A stretch of 64,000 bases of DNA, from assembly GCA_039586795.1 (NCBI GenBank), contig JBDHJS010000006.1, positions 9,408 through 73,407 of the forward strand, read 5' to 3'. The notes beneath the pieces were generated by a model. It was not told where the DNA came from and did not search any database. It saw only the letters and a list, made by a program, of their open reading frames with translations. A program made the translations under genes and the position numbers. Shown here in pieces: positions 24,926-52,709 of this stretch (positions are counted from its first letter, which is position 1; each line of letters begins with the position of its first letter). The DNA is from Gemmatimonadota bacterium (lineage in GTDB: Bacteria; Gemmatimonadota; Gemmatimonadetes; Palauibacterales; KS3-K002).

Positions 24926-26017
24926 ATGGCAGACGACGTCAAGCTGGAAGAGCAGGAAGAGCGGCCGGACGATCAGGAACAGCCGGTCGAAGGCGAGTTG
25001 GCCGACGAAGGCGAGCTCGCGGAGGACGGCACGGAGCAGCCTGGCCTCGAGCCCGTGGTCAGCACGGCCGGCCTCGAGCTCGCCGAGGCGATCATGGGTC
25101 AGGTGCGCAAACGCATCGTCGGCCAGGAGTACATGGTCGAGCGCATCCTGATCGGCCTGCTGACCGGCGGCCACGTGCTCCTCGAGGGAGTGCCCGGCCT
25201 TGCCAAGACGCTGACCATTAAGACGATCGCCGAGACGATCGACACGAGCTTCCAGCGTATCCAGTTCACGCCGGATCTGCTTCCCGCCGACCTGATCGGC
25301 ACGATGATCTACAACCAGAAGACGGGTGACTTCGAGCCGCGTCATGGTCCAATATTCGCCAACATACTCTTGGCCGACGAGGTGAACCGCGCGCCGGCGA
25401 AAGTGCAGTCGGCGATGCTCGAGGCGATGCAGGAACACCAGGTCACGTTCGGCGGCCAATCGTTCGCCCTCGATGAGCCGTTCCTCGTCCTCGCGACGCA
25501 GAACCCGATCGAGCAAGAGGGCACCTATCCGTTGCCCGAGGCGCAGGTCGACCGTTTCATGCTCAAGATCAAGATCAGCTACCCGTCGCGTGACGAAGAG
25601 AAGCAGATCATGCTACGCATGTCGTCGGGTGATCCGATTCCCGTTGGCTCCGTGACGGACCCCGAAGCGATCGAGCAGGCCCGCAGCGATATCGCTCGCC
25701 TTTACATGGACGACAAGATCGCCGACTACATCGTTGATCTCGTTCACGCCAGTCGCGAACCGGCCGAGTATGGCGTACCCGAGCTCGTGCCGCTCATCGA
25801 GTATGGCGCATCGCCCCGCGCCACCATCTACCTGGCCCAAACGAGTCGCGCACACGCCTACCTGCACGGCCGGGGCTACGTGATCCCCGATGATGTAAAG
25901 GCCGTCGCTTCGGATGTACTCCGTCACCGGATCATCACCACCTATGAAGCGGAAGCCGAAGAAGTAACCTCCGACGAGATCGTAAGGAGAGTGCTAGAAG
26001 CGGTTGATGTCCCCTAG
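24926..26017 (+). CDS. MoxR-family AAA+ ATPase
   Basis: LLEGVPGLAKT is the Walker A motif, LLADEVNRAPAKVQSAMLEAMQE the Walker B/sensor region. The acidic N-terminal extension is unusual. Confidence 0.85.
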   Translation: MADDVKLEEQEERPDDQEQPVEGELADEGELAEDGTEQPGLEPVVSTAGLELAEAIMGQVRKRIVGQEYMVERILIGLLTGGHVLLEGVPGLAKTLTIKTIAETIDTSFQRIQFTPDLLPADLIGTMIYNQKTGDFEPRHGPIFANILLADEVNRAPAKVQSAMLEAMQEHQVTFGGQSFALDEPFLVLATQNPIEQEGTYPLPEAQVDRFMLKIKISYPSRDEEKQIMLRMSSGDPIPVGSVTDPEAIEQARSDIARLYMDDKIADYIVDLVHASREPAEYGVPELVPLIEYGASPRATIYLAQTSRAHAYLHGRGYVIPDDVKAVASDVLRHRIITTYEAEAEEVTSDEIVRRVLEAVDVP

Positions 26018-26158
26018 AGCGCTACCGACAATCGTCGTTCGACGCCCGGCGAACGACGCAACGAACGTCGACCCCGAACCTCGTGCGTCGAACGTCGATC
26101 GCCGAATTGTCCTCGACCGCCGAGCGACCGCTGTCGGCTGTCGAAATAGTCCAATCCG

Positions 26159-27058
26159 ATGACTCAGACAACCCAATCCGTCCCAAGGGAAGTGCTGCGG
26201 CAAGTCAAGCTGATCGAGCTACGCACCCGCGGATTGGTCAACACTCTATTCAGCGGAGAGTACCAGGCGGTCTTCAAAGGCCAGGGGATGGAGTTCGCCG
26301 AGGTCCGCGAGTACGCGCCAGGCGACGAGTACCGGACGATCGACTGGAACGTCTCCGCCCGCATGGGTCATCCCTACGTCAAGAAGTACACCGAGGAGCG
26401 CGAGCTCACCGTGATGTTCGCCGTCGACCTGTCGGGCTCCGAGCAGTTCGGGACCCGCGGTCGCTTCAAGGCGGAACTGGCGGCGGAGGTCGCCGCTGTC
26501 CTGGCCATGGCGGCGATCAAGAACAACGATCGTGTCGGCCTCCTATCGTTCACGGACCGCATCGAGGAGTTCGTACCGCCAAAGAAGGGGCGTCGCCACG
26601 CGCTGCGTCTCATCCGAGATCTGCTGGCGTTCAAGCCGTCCGGCGTCGGTACCGATCTGTCCGTAGCTCTCGACTATCTCGGTCGCATACTCCGCCACCG
26701 CGCCATTGTCTTTCTGATCTCCGATTTCATCGATGATGACTTCGAGAAATCGTTGAAAGTCATCAGTCGCCGCCACGACATCGTTGCGGTCACCGTATCG
26801 GATCCCAGCGAACTGGCCATACCGGACGTCGGCTATCTCGAGCTCATCGATGCAGAAACCGACAACCGGGTCGTCCTCGACTCGGGTAACCGCTTCGTTC
26901 GCGAGCAGTTCGAGTCGATGGCGAATGAGGAAGAGGTCCGACTTCGCCGACTCTTCAGGCGTCTATCGATCGATAGAATCGAAATCCAAACGGATCGCTC
27001 CTACGTGAAGCCGCTGATCGAGTTCTTCAGGGCTAGGGAGCGAAAGCGCGTCCGATGA
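26159..27058 (+). CDS. DUF58-domain protein (MoxR partner, vWA-like)
   Basis: GEYQAVFKGQGMEFAEVREYAPGDEYRTIDWNVSAR is the DUF58 signature. Confidence 0.8.
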   Translation: MTQTTQSVPREVLRQVKLIELRTRGLVNTLFSGEYQAVFKGQGMEFAEVREYAPGDEYRTIDWNVSARMGHPYVKKYTEERELTVMFAVDLSGSEQFGTRGRFKAELAAEVAAVLAMAAIKNNDRVGLLSFTDRIEEFVPPKKGRRHALRLIRDLLAFKPSGVGTDLSVALDYLGRILRHRAIVFLISDFIDDDFEKSLKVISRRHDIVAVTVSDPSELAIPDVGYLELIDAETDNRVVLDSGNRFVREQFESMANEEEVRLRRLFRRLSIDRIEIQTDRSYVKPLIEFFRARERKRVR

Positions 27059-28170
27059 TCGCGACGCTCACCGCTCTCGCCCTGCTGCTTCAGATGGCCG
27101 CTCCCCAGGCCGAGGTTGAAGTGCGGGCCGTGGCCGTCCCCGACAGCGTGAAGATCGGTGAAGAGTTCACGCTCAGCGTCTACGTCAGCGGTTTCGCCGA
27201 AGGGTCCGAAGTTGTCTTCCCGGAGCTTCCCGACACCGGGTCGGTGACCGCTCTCGGGCCGCCGCTGGTCGGGGGCGATCAGCCCACCGATACGCTGTTG
27301 GCGCTCTACGAGCTCGCCGCCTGGAAAGCCGGCGACCTTCAGGTCCCGGAGGCGGAGCTCGTCATCATCCGTGACGGAGCTGAGCTGACGATCCCGCTTC
27401 CCGAGGTGACCGTCCGTGTCGTGTCTGTTCTGCCGCTGGACGCCGACCCCGACACGTTGGCGTGGGAGCCGCCGGCCGATGTGGTGGGTGCCAACTGGAG
27501 CCTGCGCGACAAACTGATTGGTGCCGGGCTGGCACTCGCGGCATTGCTCATCGGCTTCGTCTATCTCCGGCGTCGGGTCGCCGCGTACCCCGTGACACTG
27601 CCTCCCGCCAAAACGCCAAGCGAACGCGCGCTGGATGCGCTGGAGCTCATCGCGCAGAGCGGGTTGATCGAGGCCGGCGAGTTGAAGGGTTTCTATTCGG
27701 CGCTGTCTTTCGTGCTCCGGCAGTTCCTCGCCGACACCGAGTACGAGTGGGGGCTCGACCTCACCACCAGCGAGGTGGTGAACGCGGTGGCCAGCGACGG
27801 TGTGACCGATCAGGCCGTTGCGTTGCTCGGCGTGCTCCTCATCGAGGCCGACACCGTGAAGTTTGCCCGCCGCCGACCGTCGCGGGGCAGAGCCGGCTGG
27901 GCGCTCGACGCGGCCCACGGTTGGGTGGCCGACTTCGAACGCGTGGACCGGTTGCCCGATTTCGTGCTCGAGCCCGACGCGGAGCTCGAAGAAGCGCTGA
28001 CGGTCAAGCGAGAGGCCGGCCTCAGCATCGACGATAGCGAAGCGCAGCTCGAGGAGATCGACGACATCTTCGCGGATGATGCGGTGGTCGAGGGCGAGGC
28101 CTCTGAGACGGCCAGCCATGCCGAGGATACGTTTGAGGATGACGAGCAAGGGAAGGGGGACGCGACATGA
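27055..28170 (+). CDS. Hypothetical membrane-anchored protein of the Bat-type operon
   Basis: Signal/anchor at the N-terminus, one mid TM segment, and an acidic C-terminus. Its position between DUF58 and BatA matches the conserved operon slot. Confidence 0.45.
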   Translation: MIATLTALALLLQMAAPQAEVEVRAVAVPDSVKIGEEFTLSVYVSGFAEGSEVVFPELPDTGSVTALGPPLVGGDQPTDTLLALYELAAWKAGDLQVPEAELVIIRDGAELTIPLPEVTVRVVSVLPLDADPDTLAWEPPADVVGANWSLRDKLIGAGLALAALLIGFVYLRRRVAAYPVTLPPAKTPSERALDALELIAQSGLIEAGELKGFYSALSFVLRQFLADTEYEWGLDLTTSEVVNAVASDGVTDQAVALLGVLLIEADTVKFARRRPSRGRAGWALDAAHGWVADFERVDRLPDFVLEPDAELEEALTVKREAGLSIDDSEAQLEEIDDIFADDAVVEGEASETASHAEDTFEDDEQGKGDAT

Positions 28171-29141
28171 TCTTCGAGTCGCCCTGGGCGTTCTCCCTGC
28201 TGGGCATCTTCCCCCTCTGGTGGCTTTGGCGCAAAGAACTCGGCGGTTTCCGCTACTCCCGCGGCGACGTCGCGGCACGTTCCGGTCGGCGGGTGAACCG
28301 CTGGATCGGCTCGTTGCCCGCCGTTCTGCGCGGACTTGCCGTGCTGACTCTCATCGTGGCGCTCGCTCGCCCGCAGACGGGTGTCGCCACGGAAGAGGTG
28401 GAAGCGGAGGGGATCGCTATCGCGCTGGTGGTCGACATATCGAGCTCGATGCTTGCCCTCGATATGCAGCCACTCGACCGACTCGAGGTCGCGAAGCGTA
28501 CGGTGCTCGAGTTCGTGATGAACCGGGAGTACGATCGAATCGCGCTCGTCGCGTTCGCCGGCGAGGCGATGACCCAGGTGCCGTTGACCATTGACTATCA
28601 GGTACTCGAGGAATCGATCAACAACCTCCAGGTCGATTTGCTGGAGGACGGTACCGCCATCGGTACCGCGTTGGCCACGGCGACGAATCGGCTACGTAGA
28701 TCGCCGGGCGCTTCCAAGGTCGTCATCCTGTTGACCGACGGTGAGAACAATCAGGGTGAGGTCGACCCGGTCACCGCGGCCCGCGCCGCGGCTGCCTATG
28801 ACATACGGACCTATACTGTGGGCGTCGGCAGCGAGGGCGTCGCGCCCGTACCGATCGGCCGCGGACCGTTGGGCACCGAGTACGCGAACATGCGCGTCCG
28901 ACTCGATGAAGATCTGCTGCGTCGCATCGCATCGATCACCGGCGCGCAGTACTTCCGCGCAACGAACGCAACGGCTCTCGAAGAGATCTATCGGCAGATC
29001 GACGAACTCGAGAAGACGCCCGTGAATGTCCGCCGCTATATCGAGTTCAGCGAGCATTTCCGACCGTTTGTCTTGCTCGCCTGCCTGTTCATCCTGGCGG
29101 AGTGGATGCTGCGCGTCCGCCGTTACCCGTTGTATGCGTGA
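28167..29141 (+). CDS. batA: vWA-domain protein BatA-like
   Basis: N-terminal TMs, then the vWA MIDAS region VVDISSSM ... LLTDGENN. Confidence 0.8.
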   Translation: MIFESPWAFSLLGIFPLWWLWRKELGGFRYSRGDVAARSGRRVNRWIGSLPAVLRGLAVLTLIVALARPQTGVATEEVEAEGIAIALVVDISSSMLALDMQPLDRLEVAKRTVLEFVMNREYDRIALVAFAGEAMTQVPLTIDYQVLEESINNLQVDLLEDGTAIGTALATATNRLRRSPGASKVVILLTDGENNQGEVDPVTAARAAAAYDIRTYTVGVGSEGVAPVPIGRGPLGTEYANMRVRLDEDLLRRIASITGAQYFRATNATALEEIYRQIDELEKTPVNVRRYIEFSEHFRPFVLLACLFILAEWMLRVRRYPLYA

Positions 29142-29172
29142 TGGTGCGATTGTCGTGTAATGGAGGTAGAGC

Positions 29173-30186
29173 GTGAGGATCGAATATCCGGTTTGGATCT
29201 GGCTGGGAATCCTGGCCGCTCTGGCGGGTATCGCCCTCGTCTACCTCTGGTACAAGCGACGACGCGCCGCACTCGATGCCCTGGGCAGTTCGGGAATGCT
29301 CGAACGCCTGACCCGCATCGATCTCTCGGGCACCCCATATCGGCGTGGCGCGCTGGTCGCCGCCGCCCTCGGTCTCATGGGCTTCTCCCTCGCCGGCCCG
29401 CAGTGGGGAGCGCAGGAGGTGGAGGAGCAGGCTCGCGCACTGAGCGTCGTCCTCGTGCTCGATATCTCCGAGTCGATGTGGGCGGAGGATGTAGCGCCGA
29501 ACCGCTTCGAACGAGAACGATTGCAGGGTCGCCGGCTCGTGACGGAGTTGGCCGGCCACCGGGTCGGCCTGGTAGCATTCGCCGGCTCCGCCTATCGCCT
29601 CTCACCACTGACCAGCGATCACGGGGCGCTGCAGCTCTATCTGGATGCCCTCGATCCATCGATGGCGGGCACGCCCGGCTCTTCGCTGGCGGCGGCAATT
29701 CGCCAGGCGGCTACCCTGCTGCGCGACGATACCGCCGAGGGGGGTGACCGGGCCATCGTGATTCTCAGTGACGGAGAATCGCATGACGAAGAGCGAGATG
29801 TTATCGATGCGGCTCGCGAAGCGGCGTCCGCGAACATCCGCGTCTACGCCATCGGCATCGGGAGCGATCGCGGCGAGCCGATCCCACGATACGATCGGGT
29901 CGGCGAGCGAATCGGCGGGTACAAGCGCGACGAGAACGGTGAAGTCGTGTTGACGCGCATGTCGTCCGAACCGCTGTCCGCGGCGACGCGGCGCGCTGGC
30001 GGATTCTGGGCTCGCTCCGATGAAGGTGGCGTGACCCGCGTGCTCGCCGCGCTGTCCGAGCTCGAGACGGGTCGGAGCGAAGTGACCCGCGGAGTGCGTT
30101 GGACGCCGCGCTTCCAGTGGTTCGTCGCCGGCGCGCTGCTCCTGCTGATCGCCGACTGGGGTTGGGCTTGGAGGCGCCAGCGATGA
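29173..30186 (+). CDS. batB: vWA-domain protein BatB-like
   Basis: VLDISESMWAED ... VILSDGESH is the vWA MIDAS region. C-terminal TM. Confidence 0.8.
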   Translation: MRIEYPVWIWLGILAALAGIALVYLWYKRRRAALDALGSSGMLERLTRIDLSGTPYRRGALVAAALGLMGFSLAGPQWGAQEVEEQARALSVVLVLDISESMWAEDVAPNRFERERLQGRRLVTELAGHRVGLVAFAGSAYRLSPLTSDHGALQLYLDALDPSMAGTPGSSLAAAIRQAATLLRDDTAEGGDRAIVILSDGESHDEERDVIDAAREAASANIRVYAIGIGSDRGEPIPRYDRVGERIGGYKRDENGEVVLTRMSSEPLSAATRRAGGFWARSDEGGVTRVLAALSELETGRSEVTRGVRWTPRFQWFVAGALLLLIADWGWAWRRQR

Positions 30187-30899
30187 GGACGATCGGGCTG
30201 GTCCTGCTGATGGGCGTCGCGCTGCTCGGTTTCCGACTCGCTACACAGGAAGAGTCGGGCAACCGGGCCTACCGCAACAGAAACTACCCGGGTGCGGTCG
30301 AGCGCTATCGCGAGGCTGTCGCTCGTGGCGGAGGCTCCGCACGGCTGCAGTACAACCTGGGGACGGCATTGCTGCAGATGTCCGAGCCGGAGGCGCGTGA
30401 GCGCTTGATGGAAGCATTGGAGGCGCAATCGCCTGAACTCCGCGCTCGCGCCTTCTATAACCTCGGCAATGCCCTCGCCCTCGGGTCGGGAGGAGCGCCC
30501 CCCAACGAAGGTGAGTTGCGTGCCGCCATCGATGCGTACCGCAGGTCGTTGCTGCTCGACCCGACTGGCGACAACGTGAGATGGAACCTCGAGCTGGCCA
30601 TGCGCCGCTTGGAGGATCGGCAGGGGAGCCCGCAGCAAGAAGGGCCGCCTCAGCAGTCTCCCAACGTACCTCCCCAGGGCCAGGGTGAAGGGCCGGAGCA
30701 ACCCAGGGGAGAAGGCCAGACCGCGCCTCAGCCGGGAGAGATGCAGCGACCTCGAGGGCAGCAGCTCGATTCTTCGGACGAGCCGTTCCCCCAGGAGCTT
30801 GCCGAGCAGATCTTGAGAGCGGTGGAAGAGCGTGAGCGGGCGCTGCAACGCGAGAAGCTGCGTCGTCAGCGCAGACGGACCAGGGGGCCCGACTGGTGA
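30183..30899 (+). CDS. batC: TPR-repeat protein BatC-like with a Gln/Pro/Gly-rich C-terminus
   Basis: The ATG at 30183 overlaps the batB stop. TPR-like YNLGTALL/FYNLGNAL repeats. The ORF-track start at 30099 lies in the batB overlap. Confidence 0.6.
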   Translation: MRTIGLVLLMGVALLGFRLATQEESGNRAYRNRNYPGAVERYREAVARGGGSARLQYNLGTALLQMSEPEARERLMEALEAQSPELRARAFYNLGNALALGSGGAPPNEGELRAAIDAYRRSLLLDPTGDNVRWNLELAMRRLEDRQGSPQQEGPPQQSPNVPPQGQGEGPEQPRGEGQTAPQPGEMQRPRGQQLDSSDEPFPQELAEQILRAVEERERALQREKLRRQRRRTRGPDW

Positions 30900-33325
30900 T
30901 CAAGAACCTCCTTCTGGTGCTTCTAGTGCCGACCCTGGGGCAGCAGGGCGAGGTGGAGGTGAGCGCCAGCCTCAACCGGCCCACAGCCAGCGTCGGCGAG
31001 ACCGTAGCGATGACCGTCACGCTGCGGGCGCCCGGTCTGCGCAGTTGGGAGATCGAGGATCCGACGTTCGAGTCACTGGAGCTGGTCTCATCGAACGACC
31101 GCAACACGTTCCGCTTCTCCGCCTCGCTGGGCGCGGTTCGCGAGTTGTCTCGCGAGTACACGCTCCGCGTTCTGCAGCCGGGTGAGATCACGATCCCGCC
31201 GGTACGCATCACCGTCGAAGGCGTGATCTACGAGACCGAGGCCTTGAGGCTGACGGCCGAGGCAGCCGGCACTTCGGCGGCGATCCCTAGGGGTGTTCGC
31301 CCGCGACCGGAAGAAGAGGTGGCGGTCCGGCTGTGGGCCGAGCCGGACACCGCCTTCGTTGGCCAGCAGGTCACCCTCACCGTGGGTGCGTTCTTCGATC
31401 CTCTGGTACGTAGTCGCTTGCAGCGTCAGCCCGAGTACCGGCCGCCGGACGTGCAGGGATTCTGGACGGCTGATTTGCCGGGCACTCCCCGGCCTGAACG
31501 GCGGGTGGTGAGTGGACGCGAGTACTTCATCCAGATCTACAGACGTGCGCTGTTTGCCCTCAGCCCGGGAACGATACGGATCCCGCCGGCCGCCGTGATC
31601 TACGAAGTGCGCCGCGGACTGATCTACGCGCCCGAGACGTTCCAGGTCGAGAGCGCCCCGGCATCGGTGGTCGTGTTGCCGCTTCCCGCGGAAGGTGCGC
31701 CCCCTGAATTCGCCGGCGCCGTCGGCCGCTACGAGACGGAGATCTGGTTCGACCGATCCGACCTGCGGGCCGGTGAAGCGGTGCACCTGTGGCTCGATGT
31801 TCAGGGCTCCGGCAACCTCAGCTCCCTCGCCCGGCCGACGATGCCCGAGGTGCCCGGGATGCGCGTTTACGACGGCGGTGAGGAAGCCGAGGTCCAGCTG
31901 CGGGGAACCGAGTTTGCTGGGCACAAGCGCTTCTCCTGGGTGCTGGTTCCCGAGCGACCCGGTCAATTCGTGCTGCCTGAATTGCGCTTGCCCTACTTCG
32001 ATCCCTGGGAGAGAAACTACGTTGTCGCCAGCACGGAGCCCGTGACGCTGAACGTCGAGCCGGCGCTCTCCGCCGGCGTCGCGCCGGCCACCGGAGGAAC
32101 CGCGGTTCGCTTCGTGAGGGCGGAGCCGGGAAGGCAGCCCGCCAACCTGCCGGACCGGCGTGGCTTCTGGATCGTCCAGATCGTTCCGCTCGCGATCCTC
32201 CTCGGTTCGCTGGCGTTCGGCCGCTACCGTGGCCGGATTCCGGCAGCGCGGCGCTCCCGGCCCCAGCGTCGTCAGCACGTGCTCCGCGAGCTGCGTCCGA
32301 TAGCCGAATCGGGCGACGCCGCCTTCTTCGGACAGCTGCGTGTGTCGATACTCGAGTGGTTGGCCACGCGGCTCCATCACCCTGGTTTGACCACGCAGGG
32401 GGCGGTGCAGGTTCAGCACGCGCTGGAGGACGCCGGCGTACCCACCGCACTGGCGCTCCAGGTCAATGACCTGCTCGAACGATGCGGCCGCCTGCGCTAC
32501 GCTCCGGATCCGCCCGGCGCCGAAATCGCTCTATCGACGCTGGCCGAGGCGGACAAGCTGATGTCGGCCATCGACCGCGAAGCGGTCTCGGAAAGACGTT
32601 TGCGAACGGCGCGTCCCGGAGGCTCGTCGGCGGCCGTAGGTCTGGCTCTGTTGTTGCTGCTGCCAGCACAATCGGCGGGGCAGAGATCGGACGAGCGACT
32701 GTTCCGCGATGGGGTGAGCGCCTATTCCCGGGCGTCGTACAGAGAGGCGGCGGAACTCTTCGAGCTCTACCTGGCTCGCCATCCTCAGGACCCGAACGCC
32801 CTCTTCAATTTGGGCGACGCCTACTACGAGTTGGGCGAGCGCGGTAAAGCGGTGGCCTATTGGGTGCGAACGCTACGCTTGCGTCCGCGCGACGAAGACG
32901 CTCGCTACAACCTCCGGATGATCGTCGGCGAAGACCCGGTCGTCGGAAGCACGCTCAACCCGTTGCCGCTGTCGCGCGACGAGATGGCGCTGCTCTTCTC
33001 GCTGTTCTGGATTGGCGGCTGCGTCGCGTTCATCCTCCGACGGCGCCGCCGAAAGGGGTTTCTCGCCTTCGCCGGCGGCACATCGATGCTGATCGCATTG
33101 CTCTGCGCCGCACTACTCTTCTATCCGCGCTCCGACTACGCGATCATCGCCAGCCACGAAGCCGTGCTGCGCGCCGGCCCCGTCCGCCAGAGCGAGATCC
33201 TCGGCTCGCCCACCCAGGGCACCGCCTATCGCGTGACCGAGCGCCGGGAGGAATGGCTGCGGGTTTCGAGGGGAGGGGACAGTGAGGGGTGGATTGAGGA
33301 GGGGCAGATTGAGTTGATTGACTAG
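30896..33325 (+). CDS. batD: BatD-like protein fused to a BatE-like TPR region, a TM segment and a C-terminal SH3b-like domain
   Basis: The N-terminal 560 aa are BatD-like. Then come TPR repeats (LFNLGDAYYELGERGKAVAYW), a TM segment (LFWIGGCVAFIL), and finally TQGTAYRVTERREEWLRVS...GWIEEGQIELID, which is SH3b-like. Confidence 0.65.
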   Translation: MIKNLLLVLLVPTLGQQGEVEVSASLNRPTASVGETVAMTVTLRAPGLRSWEIEDPTFESLELVSSNDRNTFRFSASLGAVRELSREYTLRVLQPGEITIPPVRITVEGVIYETEALRLTAEAAGTSAAIPRGVRPRPEEEVAVRLWAEPDTAFVGQQVTLTVGAFFDPLVRSRLQRQPEYRPPDVQGFWTADLPGTPRPERRVVSGREYFIQIYRRALFALSPGTIRIPPAAVIYEVRRGLIYAPETFQVESAPASVVVLPLPAEGAPPEFAGAVGRYETEIWFDRSDLRAGEAVHLWLDVQGSGNLSSLARPTMPEVPGMRVYDGGEEAEVQLRGTEFAGHKRFSWVLVPERPGQFVLPELRLPYFDPWERNYVVASTEPVTLNVEPALSAGVAPATGGTAVRFVRAEPGRQPANLPDRRGFWIVQIVPLAILLGSLAFGRYRGRIPAARRSRPQRRQHVLRELRPIAESGDAAFFGQLRVSILEWLATRLHHPGLTTQGAVQVQHALEDAGVPTALALQVNDLLERCGRLRYAPDPPGAEIALSTLAEADKLMSAIDREAVSERRLRTARPGGSSAAVGLALLLLLPAQSAGQRSDERLFRDGVSAYSRASYREAAELFELYLARHPQDPNALFNLGDAYYELGERGKAVAYWVRTLRLRPRDEDARYNLRMIVGEDPVVGSTLNPLPLSRDEMALLFSLFWIGGCVAFILRRRRRKGFLAFAGGTSMLIALLCAALLFYPRSDYAIIASHEAVLRAGPVRQSEILGSPTQGTAYRVTERREEWLRVSRGGDSEGWIEEGQIELID

Positions 33326-33385: not shown

Positions 33386-33985
33386 TCACTCCTCGACCAG
33401 AGGCACAAACCGACACCGCGTAATAAACCGCTCCCGAAACGCGCCCCCCTCCCGCCGAATCTCATAAAGATCCTGATCCACCCTCCCACCCACCGGAATC
33501 ACAAGCGATGCCCCATCCGCCAATTGCTCCAACAACGGCTCCGGCACATTCGTCGCGCCTGCCGTCACCAGAATCCCGTCAAACGGCGCCTCCTCCGGCC
33601 AGCCTTTCGATCCATCCCCAACTCTAAACTCGATATTCGTGTATTCGAGCTCCCCTAGGACCCGACGAGCCTCGACCGCCAGCTCATCGAGCCTTTCAAT
33701 CGTGTAGACGCGCTCCACGATCTCGGCCAGGATAGCTGTCTGGTAGCCGCTACCGGTTCCGACCTCCAGGATCCGGCAGTCCGGCGTCAGCCGCAGCGCT
33801 TCCGTCATCGCCGCAACCATATAAGGCTGTGATATCGACTGGCTCGACCCGATGGGCAGTGCGGAGTCTTCGTAGGCAAAGTTGTAATGGGTGCCGGGAA
33901 CGAAGCGGTGGCGCTCGACGCGTTCCATGGCTGAGAGGACCCGGAGATCGGCGACACCACGGCGCCGGATCTGCTTCTCGACCAT
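33386..33985 (-). CDS. pcm: Protein-L-isoaspartate O-methyltransferase
   Basis: ISQPYMVAAMTEAL ... ILEVGTGSGYQTAILAE (SAM motif I) ... DGILVTAGA. Start at the internal Met (MVEKQIRRRGV). Confidence 0.8.
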   Translation of the reverse strand: MVEKQIRRRGVADLRVLSAMERVERHRFVPGTHYNFAYEDSALPIGSSQSISQPYMVAAMTEALRLTPDCRILEVGTGSGYQTAILAEIVERVYTIERLDELAVEARRVLGELEYTNIEFRVGDGSKGWPEEAPFDGILVTAGATNVPEPLLEQLADGASLVIPVGGRVDQDLYEIRREGGAFRERFITRCRFVPLVEE

Positions 33986-34128
33986 CTCCTGACGCGCTGC
34001 AGCGTGATCGTATTCGCTCAAGTTCTTGTTGCTCCGCTGGTCTGGCGGGCCTGCGTCATACTGAGAGGCTAGCTGTAGTTCCGCAAGCGCTTGACCCGGG
34101 ATCGGATCCGCCGATAGGTTCGACCGAA

Positions 34129-35184
34129 ATGAACACACCGAGCTCGAAACGAGTACGCCTCACTCAGTACAGTCACGGCGCCGGTTGAGCTTGTAAGCTA
34201 GGTCCGGCGGACCTGGCCAAAGCGCTCGAAGCTCTCGGTGGCACCAGCCCGACTTCAGAGGTGCTGATCGGCCTCGATGCCCCCGACGACGCCGCCGTAT
34301 ATGCTTGGGACGATGAGCGGGCGATCGTTTCGACCGTCGATTTCTTCACGCCGATCGTCGACGACCCGTACACTTTCGGGGCGATCACCGCCGCCAACGC
34401 GATGAGCGACATCTACGCCATGGGCGGCGTTCCCCTCTTCGCCCTCAACATCGTCGCCTTCCCCAGCGGCGAGCTCGATTCGGGTATCCTGACCGAGATC
34501 CTGCGGGGCGGCCGCGACAAGGCGGCGGAAGCGGGCGTCGCGATCATCGGCGGTCACTCCATCGACGACAAGGAGCCGAAGTACGGTCTGGCCGTCGTCG
34601 GCTCAGCGCCACCCGGCTCTCTGCTCCTTAAGAGCGACGGCCGGCCCGGCGACCGTCTCGTGCTGAGCAAGGCCATCGGGATCGGTATCATCGCCACGGC
34701 CATCAAAAGCGAAGCGGCGCCCAAGGAAACCGAGGATGCGGCCGTCGCGTCGATGCTCAAGCTGAACGATCGCGCCCTCGCGGCGGCGCGCCGTTACGAC
34801 GTCGGCGCCGTCACCGATGTGACCGGGTTCGGACTGCTCGGCCACCTCCACGAGCTGGCGCGTATGAGCGGGCTCGCCGCCCGTGTCGAGTCGAGTGCCG
34901 TCCCCGTTCTCCCCGGCGCCCGCGATCTCCTCGCCGCCGGCCACGTTCCGGGCGGCACGCGCCGCAACCTCGAGTTCGTGAATGGGCTGACTGACTGGGG
35001 GACCGATCTCGACGAGAGCGAGCGCACGCTGCTCTGCGATGCCCAGACCTCGGGCGGCCTGCTCATATCCGTATCCGCGTCGGACGCGCCGGCGCTCGTT
35101 CAGGCGCTGGTCGACGAGGGACACGCCGCCGCCGAGATCGGCGAGCTGTTCGACGGCGACGTCGGATCGATCGAAGTGCGATGA
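34129..35184 (+). CDS. selD: Selenide, water dikinase (selenophosphate synthetase) containing selenocysteine, encoded by an in-frame TGA at 34186-34188
   Basis: ATG at 34129 gives MNTPSSKRVRLTQYSHGAG-[TGA]-ACKLGPADLAKALEAL..., co-linear with the E. coli SelD N-terminus RLTQYSHGAGCGCKISP. The TGA is at the Cys17 position. The ORF track splits this gene into 33829..34188 plus 34261..35184. Confidence 0.8.
34197..34217 (+). promoter_or_regulatory. SECIS-like hairpin 8 nt downstream of the selD UGA
   Basis: GCTAGGTCC-GGC-GGACCTGGC has a 9-bp stem with one G-U pair. Confidence 0.4.
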
Positions 35185-35843
35185 ACGGGCCGCTCAGCAT
35201 CCGGGAGATTGCACGTCGAACCGGGGTGCCCGAATCAACGCTTCGTTATTATCGCAGCATCTTCGCCGAGCACATCCCCACCGACGGTGCCGGACGTAGT
35301 CGCCGACACCCGGACGATGCCGTCCAGGTCTTCAAGCTCATCTCCAGCATGTTCGCCAGGGGCGCCTCCCGGGCATCCGTTCGCGACGAGCTCGAGAGCC
35401 TCCGCCTCAACGGCGAGCCGCTGGTAACCCGCGGATCACCCGACGCGAACCCCCACGATGAGACCGCAACGCGCTACGAGATCACGCGGGCGGAAACCCA
35501 GCTGCCGAGACAGGATCTGGAAAGCCTCATCACCGCCATGCTGATTCGTGATCGCGAGCTCGTCACCATGCACCGCGAGCTCCTCGAGATGGCCGGCCAA
35601 CTGCTCCACGCCGTCGGCCGCCTCGCCGGCGCGCGCCCCGCCGCCCCGTTCGCCCCCGAAGCCGCCATCCCGCCACCACGAGAGGAAGAAACCGCCGCCT
35701 CACCCGACGACGACCCCCTCGAGCTAGAGAAACTCCGCCAAAGCCTGGCTAAAGAAAGGGATATGGTCGAGCGCCTACGACACGCCCGCCTGGAACTAGA
35801 ACAAAGACTGGCAAAACTGGAGAGAGAAAAACGAAAAGGCTAG
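35181..35843 (+). CDS. MerR-family HTH transcriptional regulator with a coiled-coil C-terminus
   Basis: LSIREIARRTGVPESTLRYYRSIF is a MerR-type HTH. It overlaps the selD stop by 4 nt. Confidence 0.6.
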   Translation: MNGPLSIREIARRTGVPESTLRYYRSIFAEHIPTDGAGRSRRHPDDAVQVFKLISSMFARGASRASVRDELESLRLNGEPLVTRGSPDANPHDETATRYEITRAETQLPRQDLESLITAMLIRDRELVTMHRELLEMAGQLLHAVGRLAGARPAAPFAPEAAIPPPREEETAASPDDDPLELEKLRQSLAKERDMVERLRHARLELEQRLAKLEREKRKG

Positions 35844-39157: not shown

Positions 39158-39769
39158 ATGTACCGGAGAACACAAAACAGCAAGGGCTTCACCCTGATCG
39201 AAATGGTCATTGTGGTAATGATTTTCGGTCTCATGGCGGCGATCACGATTCCGCGTGCCATGCGTGTCAGCCCCCGGCAGCAGGTCCATGCGGCGGCCCG
39301 CCAGGTGATGCGTGACCTGGAAGCTGCTCGGATGAGGGCCATCTCCGCGAAGCGCGTGGTCCGCATGAGCTTCTACCAGACGAAGGACTTCTACGCGGCG
39401 TACATGGATGTGTCCAAAGCTCGTAAGGGCAACATCGAGGAAACGGAAGAAGAGGCGCGTGCCTCGAGGTTCCTCGTCCGGGCGTCTGAGAGCGGAATCC
39501 CGGGCGCGGATCTTCCCAACGGCGTCGTTTTCGGGGGCGGCAATGCAACGGCGGGTCCGCTGGGCGAAGTGGTCAGCGACCCGATCCTATTCGACAGCGA
39601 TCTGGTGGAGTTTGACGCACGCGGCATGGTTCGGCCGATCAACGGAGTGCGGTCCGGCGGCGTGATAGTGCTGGTACACAAAGATGATCCCGAGATCGTC
39701 GCCGCAGTGACGGTGACCGGGTCGGGAGCGTTTCGTTCGTGGAACTGGCAGGACGGCAAGTGGAGGTAA
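39158..39769 (+). CDS. Type IV pilus / T2SS minor pseudopilin (GspH/FimT-like)
   Basis: Class III leader MYRRTQNSKG|FTLIEMVIVVMIFGLMAA, with a prepilin peptidase site and Glu+5. Confidence 0.7.
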   Translation: MYRRTQNSKGFTLIEMVIVVMIFGLMAAITIPRAMRVSPRQQVHAAARQVMRDLEAARMRAISAKRVVRMSFYQTKDFYAAYMDVSKARKGNIEETEEEARASRFLVRASESGIPGADLPNGVVFGGGNATAGPLGEVVSDPILFDSDLVEFDARGMVRPINGVRSGGVIVLVHKDDPEIVAAVTVTGSGAFRSWNWQDGKWR

Positions 39770-40182
39770 TGAAAGTGTTCCGGAAGATGAAATCGGAGGC
39801 CGGTATCGGCCTGATGAGCACGATGGTCGCGATGGTCCTTTTGGGGCTGGCGGTCACGGCGCTTTCCAGCTCCGGCATGATGGTCCTGGCGGTTCACACC
39901 GACTCTGCGGTACGCGCGACGGCGACGGCGTTGGCCGCGTCCTATCTCGAGGAGGTCAAGGCCCGTGATCCTCAGACCCTCGCCTCGGAGTCGGCGGCCA
40001 AGATCAACGAGGCCGGCATCGATGAGTCGACGGGCCCTTACATCAGGTCCCTCGAAGTAGCCGACGAGGACGGGCTCGCCTACACGAAGCGAGTCACCGT
40101 ACTGGTTCAGTATCCCCGCGGCAAAGGCCGCATGGGTCGAGTGGAGCTGGTCACGGTGATCTACGTGGGAGAAGAGCGATGA
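39769..40182 (+). CDS. PilV-like minor pilin
   Basis: MKVFRKMKSEAG|IGLMSTMVAMVLLGLAVTAL is a prepilin-like hydrophobic N-terminus, atypical in lacking Glu+5. Start at the internal Met at 39769. Confidence 0.5.
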   Translation: MKVFRKMKSEAGIGLMSTMVAMVLLGLAVTALSSSGMMVLAVHTDSAVRATATALAASYLEEVKARDPQTLASESAAKINEAGIDESTGPYIRSLEVADEDGLAYTKRVTVLVQYPRGKGRMGRVELVTVIYVGEER

Positions 40183-41159
40183 ACTCGCAGCGCTTGCTTC
40201 GCCTGGCGCTCCCCCGCGACAACAGGCTGTCCTCTGAAGGCTTCACCCTGGTCGAGGCGCTCATCGGCATGATGGTAGGCATCTTAGTCCTCGGCGCCAC
40301 CGTCGGGTTCTTGCTGACCCAGATGCGGACCCTCGGCGCTGGCGACGTGCGTGAGGACCTACACCGCAACGCGCGGTATATTGGCGTCTCGCTGCGCCAC
40401 GATGTGCAGGCTGCGGGCATCGAAATGAAGACGACCCACGACTTCGGGACGATGGCGGCGTACCCCGGCACCTACGGAGACACGCTGATCGTTCTTCACG
40501 TGCCCTACGTTCCCTCACCGGCGCCGCCCCACGACATCGATCCGCCGGCCGGGACCGACAATCCGCTCCCTGCGGGCGGTACCTGCGGCACGAACTGCAT
40601 CGACGTCACGAAAGAGTCGGGTGTGCAGCTCGAGCTGGTCCAGGGTGACCTTGCTCGCATGCAGATCGGTAGTACGCGACGGTTCATTCTGATTGAAAAG
40701 ATCGTCGCGACCAACGATACGTCGGTTGCCCTCACCTTCACGGCGCACGATACGATCCTCCGCAAGCCCGCCGGTCTCACCGGCGGCCTGCGACTCGACC
40801 GCTTCAGCACTTTTGTTCAGAAGGTCCAGCCGACCATCTACTGGGTGGACGACCAGAAGCGCCTCTGGCGCGCCGTGCGCCTCAACTCCAGCAGCAAGCC
40901 GGTGGGCCACATCCTGGCCTGGGGCGTCGAGTCTTTCGAGATCCGCCTGATCTTCGAGGACGGCGACGAGCTGGAGCAAGCCAACCCGTTCGATAGCGAC
41001 AACTCGAACGACTATGACGACGTCGTCGCCGTTCGGATCACGGCCACGCTGGCCGCCGACCGCACGGACCAGCGGGTGAACGGAGGGCAGCTGCTCAAGA
41101 AGTCGTACGAATGGGTAATCTCGCCCCGAAACCTGCGGTATGAGAGAAACAGGTTCTAA
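40179..41159 (+). CDS. PilW-like minor pilin
   Basis: ...LSSEG|FTLVEALIGMMVGILVLGA is a class III prepilin N-terminus. Length 326 aa. Confidence 0.65.
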   Translation: MNSQRLLRLALPRDNRLSSEGFTLVEALIGMMVGILVLGATVGFLLTQMRTLGAGDVREDLHRNARYIGVSLRHDVQAAGIEMKTTHDFGTMAAYPGTYGDTLIVLHVPYVPSPAPPHDIDPPAGTDNPLPAGGTCGTNCIDVTKESGVQLELVQGDLARMQIGSTRRFILIEKIVATNDTSVALTFTAHDTILRKPAGLTGGLRLDRFSTFVQKVQPTIYWVDDQKRLWRAVRLNSSSKPVGHILAWGVESFEIRLIFEDGDELEQANPFDSDNSNDYDDVVAVRITATLAADRTDQRVNGGQLLKKSYEWVISPRNLRYERNRF

Positions 41160-41195
41160 CGAACGAACTCGGCCCCAACCGAACTGGATTGAGAT

Positions 41196-43391
41196 ATGCG
41201 CATCAAGAGCTTCACAGACGAACGCGGCCTGGCGCTGATCGCCACGTTGCTGCTTCTGGCCCTGGTCGCCGTGCTGACGACGACGGCGCTCACCGGCGCC
41301 ATGAACGCGCTCCGTACGTCGGGCAGCGACTACCAGGACACGCGGGTCTTCTACGCCGCGGAAGCGGGCGCCGAGGCCACACTGGCCCAGCTGAAGGTCG
41401 CGCTGCTCGATGGGTACCTGTCGCCCGACGAGCTGACGAACATGAAGCCGCCAGATCTGAACGCCGTCGACTTCGACAGCTTCGCGGTGAACAAGGTTGG
41501 CGATGAGATCGTCGAGACGATCACCGACGGACCGTTCGCCGGGCTCTACGCGCTGACGCAGAACGTCGACATCTATTCCCGGGCCGCGAACGCGGCGGGC
41601 GATGTCTCAGCGGTCATTCTGCGCGCCAAGGCGCAGGCGATCCCCATCTTCCAGTTCGGCGTCTTCTTCGAGCAGGACCTCGAGGCTACCAACGGGCCGC
41701 CCATGGAGTTCGTGGGGCGCGTCCATTCGAACGGCAACATCTACCTGAGCTCGGACAACGCCTGGTACCGCGACCTGGTCACCACGCCCAACAAGATCAT
41801 CCACGACCGCAAGGACTTCCACAGCGTGAAGAACGGGGTGTACGTTAACGACTCCGGCGGCACCGAGGTCCCGTTGGACTTTGACAGCCGGACGCACGCG
41901 GACCCCGAAGCGTTCAAGGCGAAGAGCTGCGACAGGTTCGACTGCCGGGTGCAGACCGACGCCTTCGGGGTCGACTCGCTCTCTCTGCCGCTGCCCGATG
42001 GCGTGCCGCCCTACGAGTTGCTCATGCCACGCGAGAACAGCGATGTGGACGCGGAGCGCCAGGTGAAGTTCGCCTGGAACGCCGACATGTACATCGAGGT
42101 CGACCTGGGCAACATCAGCACCAAGGAGGACGTTTGCATGGGTGGCGGCCCCAAAAAGGACCCGGACGAGGTCGGCGGCGACCTGCAGGTCACCGCTCTG
42201 CAGAAGGTGGAACCGGGGGCGACCGTCCAGTTCAAGATCCTCAACGTGCCCTGCGGGGAGATCGATGACGTCGATGTCCAAATTACGGCCGACGGCGTCA
42301 CATTCTTTTCGGTCATTGACCTTCAGAACTGTATCTTCCAGGCCACCATCCCCATCGACGCCAACGACGTCGTCTTGACCGCCATTGGCGACGATGACGG
42401 TATCGGGACGGTGATGAACGGGAGCGCCTTCTGGTACGGGCTTCAGTACGTCAACGATCTCGCGCCCTGGCCGGCGACGACGATCACCCGCAGTTCGGGT
42501 GGTGACGTTCCGGCTGCTAAAGACATGTGCAACATGTTCTGGTGGGATTGGGCGAGCTTCTACGACGGGCGCGAAAAGGAGCTCAAAGATGTGCTCAACA
42601 TCGACATCGCCCAGATAGTCGCCTGGGCCGGCGGCTCGTCCTCCCGGAGCAGTGAGGTCATTTACGTCGAGATCAAGGTTCCCAATACGATCAATGGGTA
42701 CTCGCAAGAGACGCTGGACCTGATATTGGACGGGACACTCGATCCGGCGGTGCGCGTGCTCAACGGCCAGACGCTGCCGAATCCGATGTCGCTGGCCAGC
42801 GAATGGCCGCTCTACGTGAAGGGCGACTATAACCGCTTCGCGAAGAAGCCCGCCGCCCTGGCCGGCGACGGCATCACTATCCTGTCTAATGCTTGGGACG
42901 ATGCGAACAACAAGCCGCCCGGCGGTACCTACACCTCCTGTACGAACCAGACCGCTCCAAACTCTCCGTGTGCACACTACTTGACCTGGCAAGCCACCTG
43001 GACGAAGGGGCCGAGCCTCGAGACCTGGGTCAACGCGGCGATCCTCGCCGGGCACACGGCGACGCCGTGTGACCATGAAGATTCTTCCTGCATCGCCGAC
43101 GGCTCGAGCGCCTACTATACGGACTGGTACGGCGGCGGACTGGAGAACTTCCCACGCTTCCTCGAGCGCTGGTACAACACTAGCGGAGTTCGCCAGACGC
43201 TCCATTTCGTGGGCGCTCTGATCAGCCCGTTCACCAGCCAGAAGACGACCGGCACTTGGAACGGCAGCTACTACTCGCCGCCCCAGCGTGACTGGCAATT
43301 CGATACAGATTTCCAAGACCCGAGGCTCTTGCCGCCGGGCACGCCCAACGTGGGGTACGTCCTGCGAACCGCCATGAGAGAGGCATACTGA
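41196..43391 (+). CDS. Large PilX-N-terminal-domain protein (731 aa), candidate pilus tip/adhesin component
   Basis: RGLALIATLLLLALVAVLTTTALTGAMNALRTSGSDYQDTRVFYAAEAGAE is a PilX_N-type N-terminus. The N-terminal 300 aa and C-terminal 60 aa are near-identical to the downstream paralog. Confidence 0.6.
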   Translation: MRIKSFTDERGLALIATLLLLALVAVLTTTALTGAMNALRTSGSDYQDTRVFYAAEAGAEATLAQLKVALLDGYLSPDELTNMKPPDLNAVDFDSFAVNKVGDEIVETITDGPFAGLYALTQNVDIYSRAANAAGDVSAVILRAKAQAIPIFQFGVFFEQDLEATNGPPMEFVGRVHSNGNIYLSSDNAWYRDLVTTPNKIIHDRKDFHSVKNGVYVNDSGGTEVPLDFDSRTHADPEAFKAKSCDRFDCRVQTDAFGVDSLSLPLPDGVPPYELLMPRENSDVDAERQVKFAWNADMYIEVDLGNISTKEDVCMGGGPKKDPDEVGGDLQVTALQKVEPGATVQFKILNVPCGEIDDVDVQITADGVTFFSVIDLQNCIFQATIPIDANDVVLTAIGDDDGIGTVMNGSAFWYGLQYVNDLAPWPATTITRSSGGDVPAAKDMCNMFWWDWASFYDGREKELKDVLNIDIAQIVAWAGGSSSRSSEVIYVEIKVPNTINGYSQETLDLILDGTLDPAVRVLNGQTLPNPMSLASEWPLYVKGDYNRFAKKPAALAGDGITILSNAWDDANNKPPGGTYTSCTNQTAPNSPCAHYLTWQATWTKGPSLETWVNAAILAGHTATPCDHEDSSCIADGSSAYYTDWYGGGLENFPRFLERWYNTSGVRQTLHFVGALISPFTSQKTTGTWNGSYYSPPQRDWQFDTDFQDPRLLPPGTPNVGYVLRTAMREAY

Positions 43392-43424
43392 GCTCGTCAT
43401 AGACCTTAGAACGACATTCAACCC

Positions 43425-43465
43425 GCCCTTGGATCGCCAACCCGGCGATCCAAGGGCCTTTTTTT
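43425..43465 (+). terminator. Rho-independent terminator between the two large pilin-like paralogs
   Basis: GCCCTTGGATCGCC-AACCCG-GCGATCCAAGGGC followed by TTTTTTT. Confidence 0.7.
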
Positions 43466-43526
43466 CGGGGGCATCCAGGCTTCCCAGGGACCAGCAACAG
43501 TCCCGTCCGACAACCCGGAGATTTGT

Positions 43527-51740: not shown

Positions 51741-51755
51741 GACCCGCCACACACG

Positions 51756-52709
51756 ATGAACTCTCGTCCGGCCACCGAAGCGATCGTCATCACCGGACCG
51801 ACCGGGGCGGGGAAGACGACGCTCGCCGTCGAAGTGGCGGAGCAGGTTGGTGGTTCAATCATCTCCGCCGACTCCAGACAGGTGTACCGGGGGATGGATA
51901 TCGGCACCGCGAAGCCCGGGCCCGAACTCCGTAAGCGTTTGCCACATAATGGGTTAGATCTCGTCGATCCCGACGAGGGCTACAGCGCCGGGCGCTTCGC
52001 TCGAGATGCTTGGGTGTGGATCGACCAGATCACCGCGGACGGCCGTGTGCCCGTCATCGCCGGCGGCACCGGCTTCTTCATTCGATCGCTACTCGAGCCG
52101 CTGGGCCCGGAACCCGACCTCGAGCCGGAACGCCGGGACGATCTCCGCCGTTACCTATCGGGACTGGCGCCTGACGAGCTGAAGCGGTGGTTGCGGCGAT
52201 TGGATCCGCTGCGGGCGTCGCGCTTCGAGAACGAAGGCGGTGGCCAGCGCCTGTCGCGCTCGCTGGAGGTGGCGCTGCTGTCCGGGCAACCACACACACG
52301 GTGGCTGGAGCGCCCGCCTGAGACCCGAGCGTTGTCCGCCCTCGTCTTTTGCCTGGAGCTGCCGCGCGAGGTGCTGTACGAGCGGATCAACGCCCGCTTC
52401 GATCGGATGATGGAGCAGGGGCTGCTGGATGAAGTGCGCGGCCTGCTCGAGCGCCATTCGACGGACGCACCGGGGCTCGATTCGCTAGGCTATGCCGAGC
52501 TCGCACGCCACGTGCACGGCGAGCTGTCGCTGGAGGAAGCGGTCGAAGAAGCGAAGCGCAACACGCGGCGGTTTGCCAAGCGGCAGATGACGTGGTTTCG
52601 GCATCAGTTGCCGGAAGGTGCCGTTTGGCTTGATGGCCGCCAGTCGATAGGACAGCTAGTGGCGTCGGTCTTGTCGAACTGGCAAGACCCAACTTTGGAG
52701 ACGCGATGA
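51756..52709 (+). CDS. miaA: tRNA dimethylallyltransferase
   Basis: ITGPTGAGKT P-loop and SADSRQVYRGMDIGTAKP. Confidence 0.9.
   Translation: MNSRPATEAIVITGPTGAGKTTLAVEVAEQVGGSIISADSRQVYRGMDIGTAKPGPELRKRLPHNGLDLVDPDEGYSAGRFARDAWVWIDQITADGRVPVIAGGTGFFIRSLLEPLGPEPDLEPERRDDLRRYLSGLAPDELKRWLRRLDPLRASRFENEGGGQRLSRSLEVALLSGQPHTRWLERPPETRALSALVFCLELPREVLYERINARFDRMMEQGLLDEVRGLLERHSTDAPGLDSLGYAELARHVHGELSLEEAVEEAKRNTRRFAKRQMTWFRHQLPEGAVWLDGRQSIGQLVASVLSNWQDPTLETR

Follow-up and report, generated by a model that had tools for sequence, protein, structure and literature searches.

A selD gene with an in-frame UGA at its catalytic position and a candidate bacterial SECIS hairpin just downstream in a Gemmatimonadota genome

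Results

Organization of the selD locus

The window, by which we mean the whole 64-kb stretch of DNA that was analysed, carries a selD gene that is divergent from pcm and is followed directly by the gene of a MerR-type protein. The features of the locus are listed below.

34129..35184, + strand: selD, complete coding sequence of 351 codons including the predicted Sec codon; selenide, water dikinase (selenophosphate synthetase)
34186..34188, + strand: in-frame UGA, predicted Sec codon, in the motif HGAG-U-ACK at the position of Cys17 of E. coli SelD
34197..34217, + strand: candidate bacterial SECIS hairpin with a stem of 9 bp and the apical loop GGC (34206-34208), 17 nt from the UGA to the loop
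34189..34223, + strand: extended stem-loop, a predicted 4-bp lower stem (34189-34192 with 34220-34223) around the 9-bp hairpin
34261..35184, + strand: truncated ORF from automated gene calling, GTG start, 307 aa, without the catalytic N-terminal loop
35181..35843, + strand: gene of a MerR-type HTH and coiled-coil protein, 220 aa, overlapping the selD stop by 4 nt (ATGA)
33386..34138, - strand: pcm (protein-L-isoaspartate O-methyltransferase), longest ORF, divergent from selD
34091..34120, + strand: promoter-like element TTGACC-N18-TAGGTT, ending 8 nt before the selD ATG

The selD frame opens with the ATG at 34129 and closes with the stop codon ending at 35184, and its sole interruption is the TGA at 34186-34188. 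Translation through this triplet gives MNTPSSKRVRLTQYSHGAG*ACKLGPADLAKALE..., with one internal stop after which the product begins with ACKLGPADL. Cys was put in place of the internal stop for HMM scoring, and the read-through product then reached 381.3 bits with TIGR00476 (cutoff 125) and 371 bits with NF002098 (cutoff 299). The SelD HMM alignment spanned residues 6-347, and thus also residues N-terminal of the TGA; the AIRS (PF00586, 99.6 bits) and AIRS_C (PF02769, 71.2 bits) domains were both found in the read-through product. The alignment to E. coli SelD (3U0O) covered residues 3-337 (E = 7.5e-79), in which RLTQYSHGAG-C-GCK of the E. coli protein was paired residue by residue with the window product; HGAG-U-ACK stands opposite HGAG-C-GCK, with the TGA at Cys17 and Lys20 retained. 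In the E. coli enzyme selenide is bound by Cys17, a catalytic residue whose replacement by Ser (C17S) abolishes activity (PMC3956282). The window gene is SelD by every defining feature testable from sequence, and it likewise shows all such features of a Sec/Cys-pair selenoprotein gene and of the bSECIS model.

Mechanical ORF listing cuts selD in two, giving one ORF at 33829..34188 (119 aa) and another at 34261..35184 (307 aa, GTG start). The protein record P0001 (JGI, 'selenide,water dikinase', 307 aa) is the truncated second piece, with 100% identity over 87% of the query, and among the next ~75 homologues most were fragments of 80-91% coverage and about 282-320 aa. Since most of the homologue entries are also fragments, truncation at the UGA is systematic in public gene calls. 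For a relative, from the complete genome CP070815.1, NCBI calls a protein of 349 aa that runs across the TGA; we infer that this selD was annotated as a selenoprotein.

The in-frame UGA among related loci

A scan with one genome per species gave 80 related loci, and the homologous codon was compared in 75 of them. The closest related loci were Gemmatimonadota MAGs with 67-76% identity. The codon was TGA in 30 of the 75 loci and TGC or TGT in 45, and TGA-form selD was found in Gemmatimonadota, Marinimicrobia/Fidelibacterota, Nitrospirota, Acidimicrobiia and Chloroflexota. Judged by these codons, the split among the selD orthologues is a classical Sec/Cys pair. The TGA and the hairpin are both kept in all ten further Sec-form loci examined in the clade of the window gene, and the nearest Cys form, at locus L082 (protein P0005, 67% identical), has TGT at the Sec codon.

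In the 19 codons 5' of the TGA the amino acids are kept while the third positions vary (nine distinct clade sequences), and Thr, Pro, Arg and Val are each written with four or five codons in the clade. The selD ATG is invariant in 10/10 close relatives. The third-position variation together with the invariant ATG therefore indicates protein-coding selection in this frame 5' of the TGA. TGA also serves as an ordinary stop in the window, more often than any other codon (27 of the 54 provisional genes), and a genome-wide reassignment of UGA is thereby ruled out; GroEL, SecD, MutL and GltX are encoded by full-length intact ORFs in the window. The UGA in selD is a local recoding.

The hairpin downstream of the UGA

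The hairpin GCUAGGUCC-GGC-GGACCUGGC begins 8 nt past the UGA and consists of nine pairs, one of which is G-U. The MFE fold of 34189-34225 had an energy of -19.6 kcal/mol (z = -3.48), a stability reached by none of 200 shuffles; a larger predicted fold with the UGA inside the lower helix was also seen. The bSECIS model of PMC13188914 (Fig. 2) is defined by a loop of 3-9 nt, an upper stem of 4-16 bp, a UGA-to-loop distance of 16-37 nt, a G in the first two loop positions (G then G or U) and an energy of -7.5 kcal/mol or lower. These rules were re-implemented here for contiguous stems only, and the hairpin at 34197-34217 satisfied 4/4 of them (GGC loop, 9 bp, 17 nt, -14.4 kcal/mol). The rules are loose in this DNA of 63% GC, in which 9.7% of the 1725 window TGA triplets pass; a rule-passing hairpin at -14.4 kcal/mol or better was found at 11 of the 1725 triplets (0.64%). 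On the + strand of the window only 18 distinct hairpins match the one at 34197-34217 in quality. A rule-passing hairpin was present in 24 of the 31 UGA orthologues (30 related loci and the window gene) vs 3 of the 45 Cys orthologues (Fisher p = 1.3e-10).

The stem is also conserved at its synonymous sites. Within the clade the third positions were invariant in 5/6 stem codons, vs 2/18 other amino-acid-conserved codons (p = 0.0027), and the sole third-position change in the stem is an A to G that turns an A-U pair into G-U. The rare codons CUA (3.8% of window Leu) and GGU (17% of Gly) lie in the stem. In the Cys form at L082, Asp is replaced by His and Ala by Thr, with the top two pairs broken and a loop without the leading G. 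A 'remnant SECIS' has been described for Sec-to-Cys conversions (PMC1794560), and the degraded hairpin of L082 looks like one. An Rfam search of 34050-34350 at a permissive threshold (E = 10) gave no match.

The initial annotation had proposed that a single selD gene at 34129-35184 is split by automated ORF calling, that the SelD protein itself contains Sec, at the position of Cys17, and that a SECIS-like hairpin with a 9-bp stem (34197-34217) starts 8 nt after the UGA. All of its coordinates proved right. The JGI record is exactly the 307-aa piece, and the comparison with SelD family HMMs, which it had suggested, gave scores well over the cutoffs (381.3 and 371 bits). The placement of Sec agrees with the 3U0O alignment and with the TGA/Cys split among the 75 loci, and the hairpin was borne out by both sequence and folding. 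Its SECIS-like nature is upheld by the re-implemented bSECIS rules and by the frozen synonymous sites of the stem, and all these lines, from the HMMs to the stem, agree with SelD being a selenoprotein.

Proximal and distal hairpins in Sec-SelD genes

In most other Sec-SelD loci sampled, the rule-passing hairpin is distal, with a GUA or GUU loop at +33 nt and a stem of the form GGCCCAG/CUGGGUC. The distal helix covaries in 29 Sec-SelD sequences, for which 0 of 500 shuffles reached the observed score; columns 39/49, for example, pair as CG (10), GC (7), UA (4) and UG (3). The covariation of the proximal helix across phyla was not above chance, and the part GGUCC/GGACC of the proximal stem is dictated by a conserved Gly-Pro-x-Asp-Leu peptide. 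The window clade has no rule-passing distal hairpin, even with the energy limit relaxed to -4 kcal/mol, and its proximal stem is lengthened to 9 bp. Because this clade is without the distal hairpin and has an extended proximal stem, the proximal hairpin was taken as the SECIS, and we predict with moderate confidence that it acts as such in the window clade, on the strength of its conservation there. Most other Sec-SelD genes carry the distal hairpin, so the functional identity of the SECIS here depends on conservation within the clade.

Upstream region and pcm

The pcm product matched NF001453 with 257.5 bits from residue 48 onwards, and the relatives are called at 152-224 aa; the true pcm start is probably near 34020. 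Upstream of selD the window has the hexamers TTGACC (34091-34096) and TAGGTT (34115-34120), and 10/10 clade loci share the arrangement GCAAGC-N0-2-GCTTGACC, a variable 18-nt spacer, TA[C/G]GTTCG, 7-9 nt and the ATG. In the alignment of these ten loci both hexamers are invariant or nearly so and the spacer varies. A strict sigma-70 consensus scan called no promoter 5' of selD, and no obvious Shine-Dalgarno sequence was found before the selD ATG. The hexamers resemble a -35/-10 pair that would place the start of transcription at or just before the ATG, and the selD mRNA is possibly leaderless or near-leaderless. The apparent upstream palindrome may be two back-to-back -35 boxes, one for selD and one for pcm.

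The MerR-type gene downstream of selD

The protein encoded at 35181..35843 contains a MerR_1 HTH (Pfam, 41.3 bits, cutoff 21.6). It has 57 detectable homologues, and all of those with a source name were labelled Gemmatimonadota. The gene lies directly 3' of selD in 8/8 contexts, including those of homologues only 40-54% identical, and it overlaps selD by 4 nt in 7/8; L082, with the Cys form of selD, is among the eight. A relative without the MerR-type gene (L002) has trkH directly 3' of selD. The synteny of the clade is batD, pcm, selD, merR-like, trkH and trkA, and because the whole block is syntenic, linkage alone cannot tell function from inertia.

The MerR-type protein has three conserved blocks and no cysteine. 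Its predicted model shows a confident winged HTH at residues 1-77 (pLDDT around 90-96), past which there are two long helices with disordered linkers between. The fold matches were the HTH domains of HiNmlR, RacA, GlnR, SoxR and CarH, all of them weak (E 0.017 or higher), and a search against the PDB gave no sequence-level match. No C-terminal effector or metal-binding region (Cys/His ligands, ligand domain) was found in the predicted model. A dyad operator of the MerR type in a 19-20 bp spacer is absent upstream of selD, where the promoter-like element has an unconserved spacer of 18 nt. With no Cys and no predicted sensor domain, a role of this protein as metal or redox sensor is unsupported.

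Selenocysteine machinery and other selenoproteins

No tRNA-Sec was found in the 64-kb window by ARAGORN or Rfam, and none of 30 window ORFs matched SelA or SelB in NCBIfam or Pfam. ARAGORN likewise found no tRNA-Sec in the flanks of 39 related loci. A motif scan of all loci placed selA/selB next to selD in four only, all from other phyla: two of Bacillota, one of Pseudonocardia and one of Thermoleophilaceae. No further selenoprotein gene was seen in the window when the in-frame TGA extensions of the 54 provisional genes were followed, only selD qualified among all TGA triplets with a strong rule-passing hairpin, and the window gave no match to families linked to the use of selenium. An in-frame TGA at 51738, between mutL and miaA, arises only because these neighbouring genes lie in the same frame, and a GC3-based screen for further selenoproteins was too noisy for use. 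The locus strongly suggests that the organism decodes Sec.

On these neighbouring features the initial annotation fared unequally. It had set selA, selB and selC outside the window, in accordance with the searches above, and the coordinates, the 4-nt overlap and the MerR character of the flanking gene were all found as described. It had also offered this gene as a candidate selenium- or redox-responsive partner of selD; the pairing is indeed conserved in 8/8 contexts, but a protein with no Cys, no sensor domain and no link to selenium does not bear out the responsive role.

Discussion

Based on the family assignment, the distribution of the codon and the hairpin, selD at 34129-35184 is a real gene and in all likelihood functional, and its UGA almost certainly encodes selenocysteine, aided by the hairpin that follows. 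We consider it highly probable that the locus works as follows. The gene would be a normal selD whose catalytic residue is selenocysteine. The hairpin at 34197-34217, with its GGC loop 17 nt past the UGA, would be the element bound by SelB, and Sec would be inserted there instead of termination. SelB, SelA and tRNA-Sec would be encoded elsewhere in the genome. The product would make selenophosphate from selenide and ATP, and this selenophosphate would be needed for Sec-tRNA(Sec); as it is required for Sec-tRNA(Sec), the SelD enzyme would depend on its own product.

The strongest competitor, although an improbable one, accepts the UGA as a Sec codon and places the SECIS in another or larger structure, either the extended fold with the UGA inside it or an element located further 3', as elsewhere in the family. 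It draws on the distal helix, which covaries over the 29 Sec-SelD genes where the proximal helix does not, and on the core GGUCC/GGACC of the proximal stem, which is partly set by the Gly-Pro-x-Asp-Leu peptide. Yet a rule-passing distal hairpin is missing from the window clade down to -4 kcal/mol, and the proximal stem attains its 9 bp via rare codons at frozen synonymous sites. The proximal hairpin is moreover degraded in the nearest Cys form (L082), and its 17-nt spacing and G-G loop start fit the bSECIS consensus, all of which favours the hairpin at 34197-34217. It is very unlikely that the TGA is a genuine stop, in which case selD would be a pseudogene or its protein would start at the GTG at 34261 without the N-terminal loop. 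Automated callers including that of JGI do give exactly this 307-aa protein, and no Sec machinery is seen within the window; against this, in-frame protein conservation covers both the 19 codons that precede the TGA and the 24 that lie between it and the GTG, the ATG is kept in 10/10 relatives, and 30 other loci in several phyla have TGA exactly where others have Cys. A protein without the Cys17/Lys20 loop would also miss its catalytic residue.

That the UGA is translated as another residue, be it Cys carried by a tRNA-Sec-like tRNA, or Trp or Gly through hairpin-stimulated near-cognate read-through, seems to us just as improbable as termination. The inserted residue is predicted here from sequence, and some eukaryotic SPS genes have hairpins next to a UGA that can promote read-through without Sec (PMC4561486). 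However, TGA is the main stop in the window, the codon falls on the site where the family has its catalytic Sec or Cys, the hairpin agrees with the SelB-type consensus, and Sec-SelD is a documented state in many bacteria. Least credible is that TGC or TGT was misread or misassembled as TGA. The TGA is one base away from the Cys codons, and the close relative L082 has TGT; but the same TGA recurs in at least ten independently assembled close relatives and in no fewer than 20 distant ones, and SECIS-type hairpins accompany it. A functional selD with a selenocysteine codon thus accounts best for the locus.

SelD has been placed among the most widespread bacterial selenoproteins in several surveys (PMC1794560, PMC2398784, PMC13188914), and in its Sec form it ranks second among bacterial selenoprotein families in how widely it occurs. 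In the GOS ocean metagenomes it was the second most abundant selenoprotein family, with 357 Sec vs 558 Cys forms (PMC2398784), and Sec/Cys conversions in SelD are documented (PMC4561486, PMC1794560). A Sec-SelD with a UGA and a downstream bSECIS is already-known biology and ordinary for the family; it has been described for about two decades, and the window gene therefore brings no new principle. The practical value of the locus is one of annotation, as the JGI call and most entries of the relatives are N-terminally truncated at the UGA. These truncated entries are without the catalytic loop and can therefore lead reconstructions of metabolism astray. Through this gene the Gemmatimonadota lineage of the window can also be recognized as one that probably uses selenocysteine, and our literature search found no paper on selenoproteins of Gemmatimonadota. 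What is new is mild and limited to the host phylum, the SECIS candidate that is proximal and not distal, and the conserved MerR-type partner. Diversity of the bSECIS between genes has already been noted (PMC13188914), so the position of the SECIS is a detail and not a surprise.

A more far-reaching reading joins two of these points, and we regard it as doubtful. The clade may have undergone SECIS turnover, in which the distal hairpin at +33 was lost and the strengthened proximal one at +17 is relied upon, and the clade-specific, translationally coupled MerR-type partner may at the same time regulate selenium metabolism or the divergent pcm-selD promoter. If the SECIS turnover were true, it would imply a flexible or co-evolving geometry of SelB and SECIS inside one gene family.

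Comparison with known systems

As compared to MerR-family regulators, the protein downstream of selD has no Cys, and the selD spacer holds no operator dyad. Its N-terminal winged HTH is like those of HiNmlR (5D90), a MerR protein without sensor domain, and of the DNA-binding domain of RacA (5I41), whereas the rest of the protein is a disordered linker and two long helices and not the contiguous dimerisation helix of MerR proteins.

The SelD of E. coli (3U0O) shares the motif RLTQYSHGAG-C/U-xCK and the conserved Lys20 with the window product and is the Cys17 form; its gene has the Cys codon TGC and no SECIS, whereas the window gene has the UGA. The bSECIS of the E. coli fdhF type and the consensus derived for such elements (PMC13188914) are like the window hairpin in having a stem-loop directly 3' of the UGA, with a small loop that starts G-G. 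Both the consensus and the window hairpin have a spacing within 16-37 nt and a stable upper stem. The window candidate differs in its perfect 9-bp stem and 3-nt loop, with no evident bulged U.

The closest known systems are the Sec-containing SelD proteins of other bacteria (PMC1794560, PMC2398784), which belong to the same family and have the UGA at the same site in the Gly-rich loop HGAG-U-xCK. In these genes, as in the window gene, a bSECIS stem-loop lies in the coding sequence just after the UGA, and the known Sec-SelD and the window clade alike show Sec/Cys interchange, with a nearby Sec-to-Cys derivative that keeps a remnant of the hairpin. The window gene differs from most other Sec-SelD loci sampled in its proximal hairpin (+17), where theirs is distal (+33, GUA/GUU loop), and from the known Sec-SelD in its host phylum, the Gemmatimonadota.

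Candidate SECIS position and probable Sec-to-Cys conversion in selD

Most Sec-SelD genes outside the clade of close Gemmatimonadota relatives of the window carry a distal hairpin, with a GUA or GUU loop 33 nt past the UGA, and the covariation in this hairpin is clear. The selD genes of the window's clade lack the distal hairpin and have a strengthened proximal hairpin in its place, and both hairpins are found together in the selD of L025, a locus from Fidelibacterota.

Distal hairpins and Cys-form genes among related selD loci
About 24-52 nt after the selD UGA: distal hairpin, in L005, L008, L013, L017, L019, L023, L034, L040, L045, L047, L048, L050, L054 and others
L082, 4001-5056: Cys-form selD (protein P0005), catalytic codon TGT
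L018 (Acidimicrobiaceae), around 1162: Cys-form selD, catalytic codon TGT

Both Cys-form genes fall among Sec-form relatives. In L082, seven lower pairs of the proximal hairpin are retained, but the pairs at its top and the G of its loop are gone. L018 retains the proximal stem that is common to its UGA relatives, and its distal stem is degraded. The hairpins of both genes resemble SECIS remnants that persisted once Sec had been converted to Cys.

Among the matches listed (P0001-P0120), the roughly 75 closest SelD homologues are mostly fragments of 282-320 aa whose start lies past the UGA; shortened annotation of Sec-SelD is therefore common across the gene calls of JGI, ENA and Logan and is also seen in some of those for NCBI MAGs. 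Another in-frame TGA in the window, the stop of mutL at 51738-51740 (+), is in frame with the next gene miaA (start 51756), and the two genes form a single long ORF when it is disregarded (51738-51758, +). Neither a supporting hairpin nor supporting homology was found for this TGA, and a single recoded gene was rejected; these are merely neighbouring genes.

Promoter layout and gene neighbourhood

The region upstream of selD (window 34083-34131, +) was aligned with nine related loci (alignment A4), and the layout GCAAGC-N0-2-GCTTGACC / N18 / TA[C/G]GTTCG / N7-9 / ATG was kept in 10 of the 10 clade loci. This layout reads as a putative -35/-10 pair, positioned so that the selD mRNA would be leaderless or nearly so. 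Upstream of selD, the quasi-palindrome could be back-to-back -35 boxes, one serving selD and the other the divergent pcm.

MerR-type genes
Window, 35181-35843 (+): MerR-type HTH gene adjoining the selD 3' end
L082, 5053-5778: counterpart
L084, 4100-4792: counterpart
L085, 1824-2501: counterpart
L087, 6001-6690: counterpart
L088, 6001-6759: counterpart
L089, 6001-6729: counterpart
L090, 4885-5640: counterpart

The MerR-type gene lay directly 3' of selD in all eight contexts looked up, mostly with a 4-nt ATGA overlap, and the selD was of the Cys form in one of them; the L002 selD locus lacks the gene. The family is narrow (57 homologues, all source-named members being labelled Gemmatimonadota) and combines a MerR-type winged HTH with two long helices and no cysteine.

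Further downstream, the cluster at 39158-45782 (+) includes a protein with a prepilin-type N-terminal methylation motif, two very large PilX_N-containing proteins (731 and 751 aa) and two ORFs that matched no Pfam family. A possible role for this cluster is as the minor-pilin or tip module of a type IV pilus. The block at 24926-33325 (+) encodes an 809-aa protein, to which BatD/TPR proteins correspond in relatives, together with a MoxR AAA ATPase, a DUF58 protein and several VWA-domain proteins. This block is a Bat-like (aerotolerance-type) operon, located directly upstream of pcm and selD, and the synteny is kept in all clade relatives.
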